From Candidatus Heimdallarchaeota archaeon (GTDB lineage: Archaea; Asgardarchaeota; Heimdallarchaeia; Hodarchaeales; Hodarchaeaceae), in contig DXJL01000156.1 in assembly GCA_019057635.1 (NCBI GenBank), positions 46,105-70,104 of the forward strand: DNA of 24,000 nt, read 5' to 3'. This document shows, in pieces, positions 8,401 through 24,000 of this stretch. Position 1 is the stretch's first letter. Every line of letters begins with the position of its first letter. Both the position numbers and the translations under genes were made by a program. Below the pieces are notes generated by a model, which saw only the letters and a program-made list of their open reading frames with translations, did no database searches and was not told where the DNA came from.

Positions 8401-9555
8401 CCCGCACCTCTGACAACAAAAGGAACCTCGCGATGTTCGATTCCGCTTATCTACATGGCCACACTTACTACATTGTTGGGAGGTATACGCTTCGTCTACC
8501 CGTACTACGGTCATTCCAACAAGTTTAGCCTTGTATTCAAGCATTTGAACCAATTGGGAGAAGGGAAGTTGAATAAACGACTGATTTATCCGTTTTCCTA
8601 AGTTGCAGTGCTGTTTCCATCCCGCATTATAACCAATGACTAAGGTCTTTATCTTCTGCTCTAAACAGTAGTTGATTATTCGACGGGAGATTTGATGGAA
8701 GATATCGTGGAGCTTATTAATCCGTCTACGATGTAGGCGTTGTATACGACGAGTAGTATACTGATGATTACAGATGGTGGCTAAGGATCGATAATGCGCA
8801 AGTTGCTTGTTATACCACTGATTAATGGTCTTAACTACCCCGCCTTTGACGAGTAAGCCGTCTGACGTAGTTACGAGATTGGTAAGACCGAGATCTATTC
8901 CCATAGTTCGGGATGGAAAATCAGAGGAAGGAAATGGTTGCGCTTGTACTTCATAGAGTAATTCTACCACAAAGCGATCATAAAATGGCACTAACCGCGC
9001 CCCAACACATGCTTCCGCTGTCAATGGAAGAGAATCCAGGGGAAAGGTCGGAAACCCTCGTGCCATGAGATTTCGAGTAAATAGAATTTGGCTATTACGG
9101 ATTCGAACTCTGCGCCGGGGAAAGCTCAGCATATACATTCCGTTCTTGGGTTTATATCTAGGGGTTCGGGGGCGGGTTCGAAACCGGCCAGGATCCTTTT
9201 TCCAAACTTTCAGCGCGTTAAAAAAGCTGCGCCAAGTTTGTTCTACCTGTCGTAGGACCTGTTGGGGTAAATAGCTATCAGACATGTCTTTTAATGCTAG
9301 ATACACTGGTTCGTGCTTGAGGCGATGATATAGGTTGGTATATTGGATCCATTTCCCTGTACTGAAAAATTCTTGTCGTACCTCATATGTCGCTCGATTA
9401 TAGAGATTTTTGGCACAGGTGCACAAATCGGTGAAAATTGGCCTAGGTTTCATTTGCATTCGGATAGCTAATTGGGGTTGAGGGTTTTTCTTGATACGCA
9501 TTCCCATTCCTTTTTGGAATTTTCACTCTTATAAACTTGAGACAAAGAGAGAGCG
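8200..9555 (-). mobile_element. tnpA-less IS200/IS605-family element carrying only tnpB (boundaries approximate)
   Basis: tnpB has no Y1/HUH transposase ORF on either side. Hand counts of 60-nt lines inside tnpB give 43-50% G+C (lines 8941 and 9121), against about 32% in flanking genes (lines 7621 and 9661). The composition step coincides with roughly 8.22 kb and 9.52 kb. Exact LE/RE hairpins were not resolved. Confidence 0.55.
8236..9507 (-). CDS. tnpB: TnpB (IS200/IS605 family OrfB, RNA-guided RuvC-type endonuclease)
   Basis: 423 aa. RuvC triad candidates are D in MGIDLGLTNLV, E in VDEAYTSQQC and D in LNADYNAARNI. A zinc ribbon CSKCG...CCQRCG sits between RuvC-II and RuvC-III. There is an N-terminal helical bundle (NLYNRATYEVRQEF). 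Confidence 0.9.
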   Translation of the reverse strand: MGMRIKKNPQPQLAIRMQMKPRPIFTDLCTCAKNLYNRATYEVRQEFFSTGKWIQYTNLYHRLKHEPVYLALKDMSDSYLPQQVLRQVEQTWRSFFNALKVWKKDPGRFRTRPRTPRYKPKNGMYMLSFPRRRVRIRNSQILFTRNLMARGFPTFPLDSLPLTAEACVGARLVPFYDRFVVELLYEVQAQPFPSSDFPSRTMGIDLGLTNLVTTSDGLLVKGGVVKTINQWYNKQLAHYRSLATICNHQYTTRRIQRLHRRRINKLHDIFHQISRRIINYCLEQKIKTLVIGYNAGWKQHCNLGKRINQSFIQLPFSQLVQMLEYKAKLVGMTVVRVDEAYTSQQCSKCGHVDKRNRTSRGSFCCQRCGVHLNADYNAARNILQRYPTDSQVVPTDSIHSSVTNLPDSGCVTHPVQNSFSRVV

Positions 9556-19097: not shown

Positions 19098-20075
19098 ATG
19101 AAGATTCATTGTGATAGTGATTGCCGACCATGTGTCTTTGAAGGGGGGCCAAGTCGTGATATTTCAGATCAATTCGAAGCTAATTATTGCCCTACCTGCA
19201 GGAAAGCTTTTTTCTGTGATGTAGGAGTAATTCAACACTTCTCTGCCGCTAGTAGCGTTTCCTATTCTTGTGTGGATTGCAATACTCCTCTACTGACAAA
19301 ATCTCTTGAAGAAATTAGTATGCTTCAAGCTCGTTTCTCCTTGAAGAATCAATCACATTCTAGTCGTCTCTCTTATAAACAAAAATTTATTCCCAAAAAG
19401 GATTTAGCGTCTCTTAAATCGCTTTCAATGTTATACGATATTAAATCTGTAAGTACTTATCACCGCTCACTGATTGATGAAATCCGTCATATTTCAGGGT
19501 TATCACCACAGGTTATCAGAAATTTTGCCCGGGAGTATGGGATTAGCGAGACGATTATTTCTAACCTATCTGGAGAACGAGAAGAAATTCTTCTCACACT
19601 TGCCAGCTTACAACCAAAATTCATTGAAATACTGTATGCAATAATAATTGGTCGCGATCCTTCTATCGAAGGAGGAATAGCGTTAAGATTCACTGTTTAC
19701 TCTGAAAATATTGGAGATATTGTTTTTATTCAGCCATCTGGGGCATTAATAGAAAGCGGTCCATTTGACCTAATCGCTTATGATCATCAAGGTATGATGA
19801 TTTGGATTTTTTGCATACAAGAAACTGTCGATATTGACGATATAAGTAAAATCGTAAGCCCAATATTAAATCAAACATTAGATGAATTTAAGGGTATTTC
19901 AAGTATTTATATTGTCGCTCAAGCATTTTCGTGGGTATCTAAACAAATTTTAAAGAAATATCAAGGTATTATTATCAGAGAGGGAGAAAAAACACGAACT
20001 ATTCCTTTCAAGTTATGGACTGAGGAAAAAAAATCAGATCAAGCTCAAATCTTATTTAAATCGGAAATCCTCTGA
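19098..20075 (+). CDS. Uncharacterised protein: N-terminal Cys-cluster/zinc ribbon, central HTH-like segment, C-terminal restriction-endonuclease-like (Mrr_cat-like) region
   Basis: 325 aa. Cys at positions 5, 9, 12, 31, 34, 40, 58 and 61, including CPTC...CVDC. HTH-like segment: GLSPQVIRNFAREYGISETIISNLSG. C-terminal FDLIAYDHQGMMIWIFCIQETVDIDDISKIV...IYIVAQAFSWVSKQILKKY resembles the Mrr-type core layout but has QET where (Q/E)xK is expected. SD-like caggtg lies upstream of the ATG. Confidence 0.6.
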   Translation: MKIHCDSDCRPCVFEGGPSRDISDQFEANYCPTCRKAFFCDVGVIQHFSAASSVSYSCVDCNTPLLTKSLEEISMLQARFSLKNQSHSSRLSYKQKFIPKKDLASLKSLSMLYDIKSVSTYHRSLIDEIRHISGLSPQVIRNFAREYGISETIISNLSGEREEILLTLASLQPKFIEILYAIIIGRDPSIEGGIALRFTVYSENIGDIVFIQPSGALIESGPFDLIAYDHQGMMIWIFCIQETVDIDDISKIVSPILNQTLDEFKGISSIYIVAQAFSWVSKQILKKYQGIIIREGEKTRTIPFKLWTEEKKSDQAQILFKSEIL

Positions 20076-20091
20076 AGGCGTGTGAGTTTTT

Positions 20092-20622
20092 TTGTCTTCC
20101 CCGACACAAGTAAATGGTTTTCATCCGTATTATAAAATAGTATTCCTTGGAAAACAAGGAGTTGGGAAAACCTCAATTATAAGAAGACTAGTTGCTTCAA
20201 ATGTTGATACAGAATATGTACCTACTCTTGGAATTTACTATTATAATTTAGAATTAGAGTATCAGAAACACAATTACTATCTCCAATTCTGGGATATATC
20301 TAATAGCTTGGATTATCAAATAAAGAACTTCTTGCAGAATGCAGCAGTCGTCGTATTGATTTTTGACTTTGCTGATAGGGAATCCCACATCTATGTAAAT
20401 CAGGTTTTTGAGACTATTAAAGAAGCAAACCCCTTCATGAAATTCCTTCTTGTTGGAAATCGATCAAAAGGGGAAAAAGAAAAACCTCCCAAGAATTTGA
20501 ATAATTTAGTGAATGAACACAATTTAACAATATACCCTATGTCCCCTCAAAATAACTCGGGGATGTCTTTGCTATTACAAGCAATTGTACATGATCTACC
20601 TCGTCCTACCGAGAGAGATTAG
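20092..20622 (+). CDS. Ras-superfamily small GTPase-like protein with degenerate G3 and G4 motifs
   Basis: 176 aa. The TTG start is forced: an in-frame TGA at 20083-20085 and no other start codon before the P-loop. G1 GKQGVGKT is at 20149-20172. G2 Thr is in YVPTLGI. G3 is WDISNS (20290-20307) instead of WDTAGQ. G4 is NRSK (20458-20469) instead of NKxD. Starts 16 nt after the upstream gene. Confidence 0.8.
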   Translation: MSSPTQVNGFHPYYKIVFLGKQGVGKTSIIRRLVASNVDTEYVPTLGIYYYNLELEYQKHNYYLQFWDISNSLDYQIKNFLQNAAVVVLIFDFADRESHIYVNQVFETIKEANPFMKFLLVGNRSKGEKEKPPKNLNNLVNEHNLTIYPMSPQNNSGMSLLLQAIVHDLPRPTERD

Positions 20623-20628
20623 ATCCTC

Positions 20629-21030
20629 TTATTTCCATTCCTCTTCATCATTTGGTAAGCAAGAGGCTTGGACAATTTCACACTCCCACCAGCGTGTACC
20701 AACTTCAAATGGGCAGCTATCATCCGTGATTTGGCACTTTCTCTCCTCTGTTAAGTATAAACAAAAACTTGACATTGTTAGACGTAGATTCATTTTCCCT
20801 GGTGCTTCTCCCATCTCATACTTCTTTGATATGGTTTCCTTTATTTCTTGATAATTCTGAATCTGTAAGGTGGTGATAATACTTCCAGTTTTAAAAGTAA
20901 TTCCCCCAGCAAGAGAATCATCGAATTCAAGAAATTTAAATAACTGTCTTTGCAGATTATCAAGAATTTCGTCATCGATATCCATTACGCCCATGAGTTG
21001 TAGCATTTCGCGCAATTTCTTTCTAAACAT
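20629..21030 (-). CDS. Hypothetical 133-aa protein with a C-terminal four-Cys cluster
   Basis: This is the longest ORF in an otherwise 577-bp gap. A GGTG (complement of 21040-21045) lies about 9 nt upstream of the ATG. The C-terminus is CQITDDSCPFEVGTRWWECEIVQASC. No family was recognised. Competing + strand ORFs (20585-20851, 20870-21073) are shorter and low-complexity. Confidence 0.5.
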   Translation of the reverse strand: MFRKKLREMLQLMGVMDIDDEILDNLQRQLFKFLEFDDSLAGGITFKTGSIITTLQIQNYQEIKETISKKYEMGEAPGKMNLRLTMSSFCLYLTEERKCQITDDSCPFEVGTRWWECEIVQASCLPNDEEEWK

Positions 21031-21199: not shown

Positions 21200-24000
21200 T
21201 TGACAGACCATGATTTTCAACCAGTTGCATGGGTTTCACTCGCCTCTCTATCAGGATTAAGCCTGGTGTCTTTAGGACAACCAGGATTAAAATCTGTGGA
21301 CGAACAAGTATATACAGGTGGTTTAACAGCTGTACAACAGATGTTGGGTGGAGAAATTGGTGGAGATACGAGCCGTTTTGTTGGGGGCAGTCATAACAAT
21401 AAAACTGGGAGATTTCTTGTAAAAACACCTGATTATGAACTTGTTGGCCAGTTTTTATTAATTTCTCGTCAGCATATTGCCGTAGCGCCTGTTCTTGTCG
21501 AGTTTTATGAGCAATTGGTTACATTCTTTGCTGAGGAGACCCTAAAAACTGATCTTGTTGAACGTGCAGAGAAGGAATTTACTGCGTTTGGAATCTCGGA
21601 TGTTTTAGATTTCTTTCTGAGTAGTATAAAGAAAGCCAGGAAAAAAGTATCAATCCCTCATAATGATAATCTTTTCAGTCAATCACTTGAAGAAAGCCTT
21701 GAAAAATCAATCAGTGATTATGAATACTCTGCTTCCTTGGTTAAAATTTCAAATCTAAAAGGAAAGTTTCATGAAATTGTTCCAACGATCCAAGCTGAAA
21801 GAAAAGATCTACTAGAAAAATTTACACATGAATTAATGGAATTCCTGGCAAGTGAATATCCTCACTCGGTTGTAATGTATTCTAAAGCGAGTTCGCTTCT
21901 AAAAGAAGTAAGAAAGTATGTTGAAAGAAACCTGGGTACTTTCAAATTTGATGCTGCATTGCAAGAAGTGATCCGTGAGTTCGAAGAGAACGATCTTCGA
22001 ATGTTTCTTGAAGATATTTCCTTACATGAAGTTACTAAGAAAAACCTTCGTTCTCGTATTGAAGATGCGATTTTTCGTAAATATCTCAAAGAGTTTCCCC
22101 TTTATTTTTTAGCAAACCCAGAAATAACCTCCTTTAACACCGAAGTAGGTCATTTAACGACACGAATAAACGAAAATTATGATATTGGGGGTACACTATC
22201 GCGAATTGCAGAAAAAATGATCGAAGATAAGATTTTTGCTAATTTACTAATACCTTACATAAGATATTTTTGTGAAGAATTTTCTGCAGGATTAACTCCT
22301 TCTGCATGGAAGTATATGCAAATCGTTTTTAAATTAATAAGTAATGAAACAAAAATTGATATCTTAGATGTATTACCCGCGATGAAAGATGAAATTCCTC
22401 CTTCTCATTTCAGTACTATCGAAAAAATGATGACTAAATTCAAGTTGACCGGAACCAAATTATCTCCGCTTTCTTTCACAGTAAAAAAAGCCAGTGATGT
22501 ACTTCCTTTTTATCGTGCTCTTTTTTCGTCTCTTGCTTTCGGTGTAAATGCAGTTATCTCGGAATTAGCATTCAGTGAGGAGAACCCAAATAATCTGCTT
22601 GAAACATTGAATAAAAATCTTGATCTTTTAGCTCGTGATCTTCACCAATCTCATGGAATTTTCAAAGTATATTCCTATTTAGAGAGCGTCCAGTCAAAAG
22701 TCTCATTTTCTTTTGCATTCCCCGATGACAAGATTACTTCGGAAAAAATCTTGAGTAATCAGCTTACAATCGATGAGTTGATGCAATCGGTGATTGATGC
22801 AAATGTGAAGAGCTTGTCAGAAGAAGGACAGCTTATTAAAAAGAAAATTACAGCGTTTCGTTCAGAATTCGATGATGAGATTAAGAATATTCTAAGATAT
22901 TTATCTCAAAAACCGCAGGATATTTCTAAAGGGTACCAACTCAAGATTGCTAAGCGACACTCGTTAAAATTTACTATAAGGCCCATATCCGAAGTAAATT
23001 CAAACATAACGAAAAATCTTTCTGAATTTGATAAATTAATGACAGACCTGCAAGAAAATCTTAAGAAATCGAAAAATGCTTCAAAAGAATTTGTAAATGG
23101 AAAATTAAAAGAGCAGGAACTTAAAAAAGTTTTGAAGAACCAAGGATTTATCAAAGACACTGAGAAAGAATTCCGAAAAATTACTGAAAAAATGGAATCA
23201 GCCGTAACAAAAAGTTACAGCAATGTATTATCTCTGGTAGAAAAGCAAGTAAAGGGTGTGTCAAAAGAAGCCTCAAAAACGTTTATGCAAGCCTGCAATT
23301 TCTTAAATATAAACAGAAAAAATCTTGCTAATCAAGATAGTAAATTAATTTCGGCCTCCTCTGCGTCAATGAAAAGCATTCAAAAATCTATCACAGAAAG
23401 TTTCGAAAAAGACCCATTCTTTGAATTTAAGAACGTAGGACGATATTATTTTTATGCAATATACAGATCTTTACCTAATAATTTACAGTCAGAAGTTTTA
23501 GACGCTCTTGTTACCAAAAAGAGTTATCCTTTTTTGAAAGAATCGATTACTAAAGTTACATCGTCATCCGATATATTCCGTAGTTATGCTAAAGTATTAG
23601 AAACGCATGCTTATGAGCTCTTATCGAATGTGTTTAGTTCTTCTGGGAAACTTGTCGGAAAAAACGTATTTAAATCTGATCCAGAAGTTAAAATAGTAAT
23701 TCAAAATAATATCCCTGTTCCAACACTTGAAGTGGGTTATCTTACAAATGAAAGGGCAGTTAAATCGTTAAAATCCCTTTATGGAACACGAATTGTTGTT
23801 GAAACAGAAAAATCAGAGAATAATGCCATTTATAGAATTTTACTTGTTGTTCCAAGTTTTAAAAGTGATTATAGTACAATGAAACATTTCTGGGAAACCA
23901 AGGATTGGACCCTGAAAAAGACTGTAATTACTCTGAGTTGGTTTTCCTTATTAGCACAGAACAAATTCTATTTGGACCTTCTTCGTTTCTCATCAGATTT
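21200..24000 (+). CDS. Large uncharacterised protein (more than 933 aa, 3' end beyond the window) with an N-terminal Roadblock/LC7/longin-like domain
   Basis: Frame 2 is open from the TAA at 21131-21133 to nt 24000 with no stop. It is not in the supplied track, presumably because it has no stop in the window. TTG at 21200 is preceded by aaaggtg (21185-21191) with an 8-nt spacer; the first in-frame ATG is at 21341. My translation begins (M)TDHDFQPVAWVSLASLSGLSLVSLGQPGLKSVDEQVYTGGLTAVQQMLGGEIGG... The remainder looks mostly helical, with a coiled-coil-like Lys/Glu stretch around 23.0-23.3 kb. Confidence 0.8.
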   Translation, partial: MTDHDFQPVAWVSLASLSGLSLVSLGQPGLKSVDEQVYTGGLTAVQQMLGGEIGGDTSRFVGGSHNNKTGRFLVKTPDYELVGQFLLISRQHIAVAPVLVEFYEQLVTFFAEETLKTDLVERAEKEFTAFGISDVLDFFLSSIKKARKKVSIPHNDNLFSQSLEESLEKSISDYEYSASLVKISNLKGKFHEIVPTIQAERKDLLEKFTHELMEFLASEYPHSVVMYSKASSLLKEVRKYVERNLGTFKFDAALQEVIREFEENDLRMFLEDISLHEVTKKNLRSRIEDAIFRKYLKEFPLYFLANPEITSFNTEVGHLTTRINENYDIGGTLSRIAEKMIEDKIFANLLIPYIRYFCEEFSAGLTPSAWKYMQIVFKLISNETKIDILDVLPAMKDEIPPSHFSTIEKMMTKFKLTGTKLSPLSFTVKKASDVLPFYRALFSSLAFGVNAVISELAFSEENPNNLLETLNKNLDLLARDLHQSHGIFKVYSYLESVQSKVSFSFAFPDDKITSEKILSNQLTIDELMQSVIDANVKSLSEEGQLIKKKITAFRSEFDDEIKNILRYLSQKPQDISKGYQLKIAKRHSLKFTIRPISEVNSNITKNLSEFDKLMTDLQENLKKSKNASKEFVNGKLKEQELKKVLKNQGFIKDTEKEFRKITEKMESAVTKSYSNVLSLVEKQVKGVSKEASKTFMQACNFLNINRKNLANQDSKLISASSASMKSIQKSITESFEKDPFFEFKNVGRYYFYAIYRSLPNNLQSEVLDALVTKKSYPFLKESITKVTSSSDIFRSYAKVLETHAYELLSNVFSSSGKLVGKNVFKSDPEVKIVIQNNIPVPTLEVGYLTNERAVKSLKSLYGTRIVVETEKSENNAIYRILLVVPSFKSDYSTMKHFWETKDWTLKKTVITLSWFSLLAQNKFYLDLLRFSSD

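Follow-up and report, generated by a model that had tools for sequence, protein, structure and literature searches.

To our knowledge, pseudoGTPases are known mainly from eukaryotes and as finished products, and the change from switch to scaffold is usually inferred from distant paralogues. RGK proteins carry a non-DxxG G3 motif and are nucleotide-binding pseudoGTPases that do not cycle. Scaffolding roles have been described for CENP-M, Rnd, and p190RhoGAP (PMC10211241, PMC12490416), of which Rnd1-3 and the N-terminal domain of p190RhoGAP combine the G fold and an intact P-loop with the loss of hydrolysis residues and act as constitutive binding modules (PMC10211241). Here, we describe a related case from the archaea, located in a stretch of 24,000 nucleotides (nt; "the window") of a Candidatus Heimdallarchaeota archaeon (assembly GCA_019057635.1, contig DXJL01000156.1, positions 46,105 to 70,104 of the forward strand), a metagenome-assembled genome (MAG) of the order Hodarchaeales. 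A 176-codon open reading frame (ORF; 20092-20622, + strand) encodes a Rab-like protein of the Ras superfamily with a perfect P-loop and degenerate G3, G4, and G5 motifs, and its orthologues in close relatives fall into three grades of motif loss, of which the window's protein represents the second. The interpretation that we prefer and regard as reasonably probable is that it would be the middle grade of a lineage-specific decay, namely a non-switching pseudo-GTPase that binds nucleotide phosphates and serves as a constitutive subunit. Our literature search found no paper treating an archaeal pseudoGTPase or this GTPase family; the Asgard proteins covered by Tran et al. 2024 are canonical Rab-like, Rag-like, Roadblock, and TRAPPC3 proteins only (PMC10933270).

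A Rab-Like G Domain with Degenerate G Motifs

An in-frame TGA (20083-20085) lies nine bases 5' of the GTPase start, and the stretch that precedes the P-loop contains no ATG, GTG, or second TTG, so that the TTG start at 20092, which an initial annotation of this DNA had already called for, is forced. Five orthologous loci keep the same TTG after the same GTGTGAG-T-rich leader, and one more distant orthologue has an ATG at approximately the same place. The Pfam Ras profile (PF00071) matches residues 15-168 with an E-value of 2.5e-18 and 66.6 bits (cut-off 21.6), accompanied by weaker matches to Roc (PF08477) and Arf, and the best sequence matches are Ypt6 and Rab6. An AlphaFold2 (AF2) model calculated with 13 homologues as input (mean local confidence, pLDDT, 79.9; predicted template modeling score, pTM, 0.81) comprises six strands and five helices in the canonical G-domain order, with the lowest confidence in the two switch regions. 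Foldseek places this model closest to Rab9B, Rab11, Rab23, and Rab35 (E 1e-11 to 1e-12, TM ~0.7, probability 1.00) and also retrieves Rap and Ras (E ~1e-11, TM ~0.7). By profile and fold, the protein is hence a Rab-like member of the Ras superfamily. The features that concern it directly are as follows:

20092-20622, + strand: Rab/Ras-like G-domain protein of 176 amino acids (aa), grade-2 degenerate orthologue (ORF, TTG start, Pfam Ras match, AF2 model)
20149-20172, + strand: G1 motif (P-loop) GKQGVGKT, residues 20-27, invariant in 13 of 13 grade-2 clusters (HMMER)
20215-20235, + strand: switch I YVPTLGI with Thr45 (G2), opposite "ATIGI" of Rab6/Ypt6; Thr45 in 13 of 13
20290-20307, + strand: degenerate G3 motif WDISNS, opposite WDTAGQ in Rab6/Ypt6
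20458-20469, + strand: degenerate G4 motif NRSK (GNRSK opposite GNKSD/GNKTD)
20542-20550, + strand: degenerate G5 motif SPQ, opposite SAK of the canonical paralogues L031 and L032

The register of these motifs was taken from residue-level HMMER alignments to Ypt6, Rab6, and Rab6B, and the residue roles given below rest on alignment together with textbook Ras numbering. Conservation was assessed over the clade of the window's protein (grade 2), a set of 13 protein clusters with 44-100 % identity (12 homologous clusters at 44-83 %). The initial annotation had described a canonical G1 motif and switch I threonine next to a G3 lacking both the DxxG glycine and the glutamine, and a G4 lacking the aspartate of NKxD; all of these assignments are borne out by the HMMER register, and the alignments to canonical paralogues exclude the alternative that intact DxxG or NKxD motifs had been overlooked through mis-registration. 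The degeneracy goes further than was described at that time: it includes the G5 motif and a deletion in switch II, and the losses of the glutamine and of the G4 aspartate are already present in the whole orthologous group.

In G3, Asp68 is retained, Asn71 takes the position of the DxxG glycine (Ala in 3 of the 13 clusters), and Ser72 that of the catalytic glutamine, a position held by Ser, Thr, or Ala across grade 2. After G3, switch II shows a gap and is two residues shorter than in Rabs. In G4, Lys126 (13 of 13) stands where an aspartate normally reads guanine and Arg124 at the lysine position, and the G5 position is variable within the clade. All 13 clusters read WD[IV]S[NA][STA] in combination with N[RKG][SA]K or T[ST]RK, so that the degeneracy is no one-off error. 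In canonical small GTPases, the amide of the DxxG glycine senses the gamma-phosphate and the adjacent glutamine is catalytic; N1/N2 of guanine are recognized by the G4 aspartate and O6 by the backbone NH of the G5 alanine, which proline lacks. Judged by the alignment, the motif changes remove the gamma-phosphate-sensing glycine, the catalytic glutamine, the guanine-reading aspartate, and (through Pro152) the O6-reading NH.

Other parts of the site are constant. Of all columns, 41 (~23 %) do not vary over the 13 clusters, including the entire P-loop, Thr45, Asp68, and Lys126, and each of the phosphate and Mg2+ ligands (G20, G25, K26, T27, S28, T45, and D68) is found in 13 of 13. The base-contact positions 38, 123, 124, 151, 152, and 153, in contrast, vary within grade 2, and Lys126 alone is fixed. 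Pairwise ratios of nonsynonymous to synonymous substitution rates (dN/dS) among five close grade-2 orthologues, for which dS ranges from saturating to moderate, amount to 0.07-0.11, which argues for a working gene under purifying selection rather than a decaying one.

With Rab/Ypt proteins and the canonical Asgard Rab-like paralogues, the protein thus has in common a single G domain of ~175 aa, the GxxxxGKT motif, the switch I threonine, the "WD" of G3, and the order of strands and helices. It differs from them in lacking the DxxG glycine, the glutamine, the NKxD aspartate, and SAK, in its shorter switch II, and in the absence of a prenylation cysteine at the C-terminus, which ends in ...DLPRPTERD (the last 80 residues are free of Cys). 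Moreover, likeness to Rab6 and Ypt6 in the alignments is partial over the interswitch and switch I (LGIYY, LQFWD) and absent over switch II/alpha2, a region that bears Rab-family motifs and appears unrelated in the window's protein. In terms of superfamily membership, the family profile, the G-domain fold, the G1 P-loop, and the G2 threonine are all present, whereas G3 DxxG, G4 [NT]KxD, and G5 SAK/SAx are not. Since three of the five G motifs fail and no prenylation cysteine is found, the protein should be filed neither as a Rab nor as a functional small GTPase. What it does show is the combination by which pseudoGTPases are defined, i.e., a GTPase fold with a loss of catalytic residues that is both non-conservative and evolutionarily conserved. 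The classes of pseudoGTPases, for which GTP hydrolysis is absent by experiment, are told apart by whether a nucleotide is bound (PMC10731463, PMC12490416); for the window's protein, the sequence predicts a retained phosphate site and a lost base site.

Three Grades of One Orthologue

Searched with the profile of the family, 20 of 21 genomes in the GTDB family of the window give exactly one match each. Of the two genomes that represent the order's second family, one yields just a weak hit on a canonical paralogue, and the other 60 genomes of the class yielded no match to the family profile at an E-value of 1e-20. Close orthologues include a 94 % identical one in the MAG Candidatus Heimdallarchaeota archaeon B3_Heim and others with 80-82 % identity in Candidatus Hodarchaeota MAGs, and the frame of the GTPase is intact in every genome examined. 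Every locus recovered presents the same gene order, consisting of a 325-aa Cys protein, the GTPase, a convergent 133-aa Cys protein, and a 955-aa protein. The GTPase is a single-copy, vertically inherited orthologue that is fixed in one Hodarchaeales gene block and kept under purifying selection.

Within this orthologous group, three grades can be told apart. Grade 1 (15 species) has a normal P-loop, Thr or Ser in switch I, and S-A or S-V in G5; its G3 (DxSG) reads D-V-S-G with Asn, His, or Asp as the next residue, which means that the glycine is kept and the glutamine is missing, and its G4 is mostly NKxE. The window's clade, grade 2, has a P-loop fixed as GKQGVGKT and has lost the G3 glycine, the G4 acid, and the G5 alanine. 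Grade 3 comprises 16 clusters annotated as Hodarchaeales (58-88 % identity) and, at locus L041, belongs to the same block of four genes. It has the switch II deletion, Lys21, and Lys126 in common with grade 2; in addition, the glycine that precedes the P-loop lysine has given way to Asp, Glu, Tyr, or Asn (11 of 13), the G4 asparagine to Ile or Leu (13 of 13), and Ser-Ala of G5 to Phe, Tyr, or Asn followed by Leu or Phe; the switch I column holds Ser in 11 of 13. From these replacements, the base pocket of grade 3 appears to be filled by hydrophobic residues.

A maximum-likelihood tree rooted on canonical paralogues recovers the orthologous group (support 100/100), grades 2 and 3 together (98/93), grade 3 (100/100), and grade 2 (91/83), with grade 1 in basal position. 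In an independent tree, that of the 325-aa protein, the genomes of grades 2 and 3 likewise form one clade (100/100). As both trees support the order of the grades, the losses were sequential and vertically inherited. The glutamine went first, along with an exchange of the G4 aspartate for glutamate. The second step removed the G3 glycine together with the G4 acid and the G5 alanine and shortened switch II by two residues; in the third, confined to one branch, the P-loop itself was lost. A number of columns outlast all of these changes, namely Asn52, Glu54, Gln65, and Trp67 in beta2-beta3 and Gly157, Leu161, and Ile165 in alpha5. The interswitch is a classical partner-binding surface of Rab and Arf proteins, and because the beta2-beta3 surface and helix alpha5 are conserved through all three grades, we propose that contact with a partner is probably made there.

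Progressive motif erosion of this kind might also be expected of a functionless paralogue that has come under relaxed selection and is heading for loss, all the more as between clades no gene of the region changes as fast as the GTPase: it is 40 % identical to its counterpart in L041 as compared to 55-79 % for eight neighbors, and between grades 2 and 1 it retains 33-41 % identity as compared to 48-72 % for its module partners. However, the low dN/dS, the retention of one copy with an intact frame in nearly all genomes of the family, the invariant columns of grade 2, and the persistence of grade 3 across its clusters all speak against such a course, which we consider extremely improbable; a decaying pseudogene was rejected on the grounds of dN/dS and copy retention.

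Nucleotide Binding, Base Preference, and Hydrolysis

Three readings had been offered by the initial annotation, i.e., a pseudo-GTPase locked in one state, an altered nucleotide specificity, or catalysis supplied in trans by a partner such as an adjacent Roadblock-like protein. The graded orthologues favor the first of these in the form of a non-switching protein; the third is unsupported as far as the neighboring gene is concerned (see the following section). According to the preferred interpretation, the P-loop and Mg2+ site would hold the phosphate end of a nucleotide as a structural cofactor with little or no base selectivity, the spring-loaded and glycine-dependent change of switch II would not occur, and hydrolysis would be slow or nil. 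In a complex formed most plausibly with the products of its three orphan neighbors, the protein would then be a constitutive subunit or adaptor. The grade-3 orthologue persists after the loss of the P-loop glycine, which argues that the module can do without a canonical GTP cycle.

Such a protein may be expected to act most like the nucleotide-binding, non-cycling pseudoGTPases, from which it would differ by its lost guanine recognition. Rnd1-3 and p190RhoGAP offer the closest parallel in their combination of fold, P-loop, and lost hydrolysis residues, their behavior as binding modules being predicted for the archaeal protein. These eukaryotic proteins, however, retain NKxD and SAK and are guanine-specific, whereas the window's protein has also lost the base-reading residues; its host is an archaeon, and kinship with them exists at the superfamily level only.

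It is conceivable that the decay has already advanced one step further and that the protein is a nucleotide-free (class i) pseudo-GTPase, in which the P-loop is kept for folding, for another anion, or for an acidic or phosphorylated group of a partner. Four elements for base and gamma-phosphate recognition are lost, grade 3 shows that fold and genomic role outlast the loss of the P-loop glycine, and class i representatives such as CENP-M and the AAGAB N-terminal domain are pure interaction modules (PMC10211241, PMC12490416). It is grade 3 that resembles CENP-M and AAGAB and that likely marks the end point of the series (PMC12490416, PMC10211241). The window's protein, in contrast, has a perfect and invariant P-loop, the switch I threonine, and the G3 aspartate, while known class i proteins are without a P-loop consensus (PMC12490416). 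Furthermore, seven phosphate and Mg2+ positions stay constant in all 13 clusters down to 44 % identity, against an overall share of invariant columns of only ~23 %, and the drift of grade 3 at the very same positions illustrates what relaxation looks like. A nucleotide-free state of the grade-2 protein therefore seems quite unlikely to us.

The same constancy suits a different alternative, according to which the protein would be an active NTPase with altered or relaxed base specificity (ATP, xanthosine triphosphate, or any nucleoside triphosphate, NTP) and with the catalytic and gamma-phosphate contacts shifted from switch II to Lys21 and Gln22 of the P-loop. All phosphate and Mg2+ ligands are invariant, and K21, Q22, and G23 are fixed solely in grade 2, being variable among grade-1 orthologues. 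Gln22 occupies the Gly12 position of Ras, four residues before the P-loop lysine, and thereby coincides with Gln40 of dynamin-1 and Gln34 of DNM1L, both of which touch the gamma-phosphate as well as the bridging water (PMC3747075). The dynamin mechanism, though, also needs a switch II glycine (PMC3747075) that is absent here. As is well established for Ras, bulky side chains in place of Gly12 are normally detrimental to hydrolysis. With respect to the base, a replaced NKxD motif shifts specificity elsewhere: the ATPase YchF/Ola1 has NxxE (PMC8779481) and SpoIVA uses ATP (cited in PMC10731463). Both resemble the present case in that the G4 aspartate is replaced in a P-loop-competent TRAFAC-type G domain (PMC8779481; PMC10731463). 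They nevertheless belong to other families, possess extra domains and a working switch II, and hydrolyze ATP. In the archaeal series, grade 1 already reads NKxE, and in grade 2 Lys126 is invariant. Free drift of the base contacts other than 126 would moreover be unexpected for a new specific pocket, and the sister clade (grade 3) drops the P-loop glycine and still retains the gene in the same block. On balance, we hold an active NTPase to be rather unlikely.

Several of these observations bear directly on the pseudo-GTPase interpretation and weigh against it. The invariance of K21, Q22, and G23 exactly in grade 2 suggests a new constraint at the gamma-phosphate site, which could mean that catalysis has been retained or re-engineered, and the invariant Lys126 at the base-reading position could be a new ligand rather than part of an idle pocket. 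Nucleotide binding, base preference, and hydrolysis are all properties that we infer from residues. As for the suggested complex, synteny runs on into housekeeping genes on both sides of the block; for this reason, the shared gene order taken alone indicates kinship and not functional coupling.

Gene Block and Orphan Neighbors

Three further genes make up the block together with the GTPase:

19098-20075, + strand: 325-aa orphan protein with eight invariant N-terminal Cys (ORF; 16 nt before the GTPase start)
20629-21030, - strand: 133-aa orphan protein with five invariant Cys (C90, C99, C106, C117, C124), converging on the GTPase 3' end
21200-23998, + strand: 955-aa orphan protein, start only (ORF open at the window end)

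The short gap between the 325-aa gene and the GTPase suggests that the two are probably co-transcribed, and across all loci the distance from the end of the former to the start of the latter lies between -4 and ~+25 nt. For the 325-aa protein, no Pfam or PDB family was found, apart from weak zinc-finger-like noise. The dN/dS values of the three orphans are 0.04-0.07 for the 325-aa protein, 0.014-0.037 for the 133-aa protein (0.074 in one near-identical pair), and 0.04-0.11 for the 955-aa protein.

The 133-aa gene is the most conserved of the block, with 81 % identity where a flanking oxidoreductase has 62 %. Its product occurs in 22 of the 23 other genomes of the order (both families) and in none of 376 other Asgard genomes, and it matches no Pfam or PDB sequence even at an E-value of 10. 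Two N-terminal helices, a beta-beta-alpha-beta-beta order, and the invariant cysteines had suggested a V4R/TRAPPC3-like zinc protein, as Asgard TRAPPC3 is described with such helices, strand order, and Cys (PMC10933270); this assignment is unsupported, given an AF2 model with a pLDDT of 59 and no Foldseek match below an E-value of 0.4. In the second family of the order, the surroundings of the gene are different and include neither the GTPase nor the 955-aa gene. At locus L039 (3624-4828, genome G070 of this second family), for example, the 133-aa homologue directly adjoins a gene for an MTS-type methyltransferase, which in the window's relatives comes after the 955-aa gene, and the GTPase, 325-aa, and 955-aa genes are missing from this locus. 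As L039 combines the 133-aa and methyltransferase genes without the other three, the block must have been assembled or dismantled within the order. The same locus also harbors a DRG/Obg-like GTPase gene followed by uncharacterized same-strand ORFs of 169 aa and 433 aa (L039, 4861-7899). Another 133-aa homologue (locus L040, genome G069) lies 2.7 kb from a small GTPase (L040, 3145-3702) that reads "WDIGAQ", with Gly and Ala swapped relative to WDxAGQ, and has a normal NKVD and SAK. The region of the grade-3 genome is syntenic except for an OrfB_IS605/TnpB-like gene (L041, 729-1433) at its upstream edge.

The 955-aa gene is transcribed divergently from the 133-aa gene and belongs to a separate transcription unit from the GTPase. 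Its head (21200-21589, the first ~115 residues) is where the initial annotation had seen a Roadblock-like partner, which raises the possibility of a conventional GTP switch whose catalytic residue is supplied in trans, for example by this head, as in MglA-MglB or Rap-RapGAP. Rap is a small GTPase without Gln61 for which the residue is provided by the GTPase-activating protein (GAP), so precedents for a glutamine-less switch exist, and the neighborhood of the window's gene is conserved in all loci. The window's protein, however, lacks more than the glutamine: gone as well are the DxxG glycine, on which any GAP mechanism still relies, the G4 acid, the G5 alanine, and part of switch II (two residues), and rescue in trans would be insufficient, since a residue supplied by a partner can restore neither gamma-phosphate sensing nor the reading of guanine. 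The head itself gave no Pfam or PDB sequence match up to an E-value of 10, Roadblock/LC7 (PF03259) and longin included. With 79 % mean column identity and 61 invariant columns across all three GTPase grades, it is near-invariant and hence does not co-vary with the changes in the active site. The proposal that this neighbor supplies catalysis thus finds no support, and a partner-completed GTP switch appears very unlikely. MglA-MglB and Rag-Ragulator remain comparable in that a small G protein gene lies near a candidate gene for a platform protein; they differ in that Roadblock membership of the neighbor is unsupported by sequence, in the separate transcription units, and in the G motifs, which are neither MglA- nor Rag-like in the window's protein, the Rag-like genes of this genome carrying HKxD.

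Ras-Like Paralogues in the Same Genome

The window's genome (3.19 Mb, 92 % complete) contains 48 frames that match the Ras profile and thus allows the GTPase to be compared with its own paralogues. DxxG is detectable in 42 Ras-like frames, 33 of them with DxxGQ, and nearly all have [NTSH]KxD and mostly SAK. Among the 48, the frame at 20092-20622 alone combines an intact P-loop with a G3 without its glycine and a G4 without its aspartate. It could not be upheld that it is the only degenerate Ras-like paralogue in the genome, as a 193-aa protein on another contig (G000:C169, 428-652, + strand) is degenerate in a different manner: its P-loop reads GDEGVGKRS, with Arg where Ser or Thr should come after the lysine, and "MWILNPLE" is found at the WDxxGQ site, with TKND retained. 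A further match to the Ras profile (G000:C141, 415-669, - strand) has an in-frame TGA and no P-loop and may be a fragment or a pseudogene. Finally, one contig encodes, 3.5 kb apart, two proteins of ~340 aa (G000:C12, 5034-5555, - strand, and 9006-9422, + strand) that look Rag/Gtr-like, read HKxD rather than NKxD, and carry long extensions at the C-terminus.

Implications

Taken as a whole, the series of orthologues invites a more far-reaching scenario, which we put forward tentatively and regard as possible but doubtful in its full extent. The Hodarchaeales would have passed in three steps from a Rab-like switch to a nucleotide-independent scaffold, with the window's protein as the intermediate that binds any NTP or phosphates as a structural cofactor, in a new complex with three order-specific orphans, including a 955-aa protein with a possibly longin-like head; the outcome would be an archaeal counterpart of the CENP-M type.

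What is new here is the graded orthologue series itself, a pseudo-GTPase apparently in the making inside an order-specific gene block, in a lineage relevant to eukaryogenesis. The same orthologue is found in the same genomic slot in three grades of decay among close relatives, within the archaeal order nearest to eukaryotes. A series of this kind may allow individual motif losses to be matched to the loss of hydrolysis, base specificity, and binding, and may also reveal what sustains selection on such a protein throughout. In addition, it points to a likely protein complex with a G-domain subunit at its center, encoded by the four genes of this orphan block, which is specific to the order.

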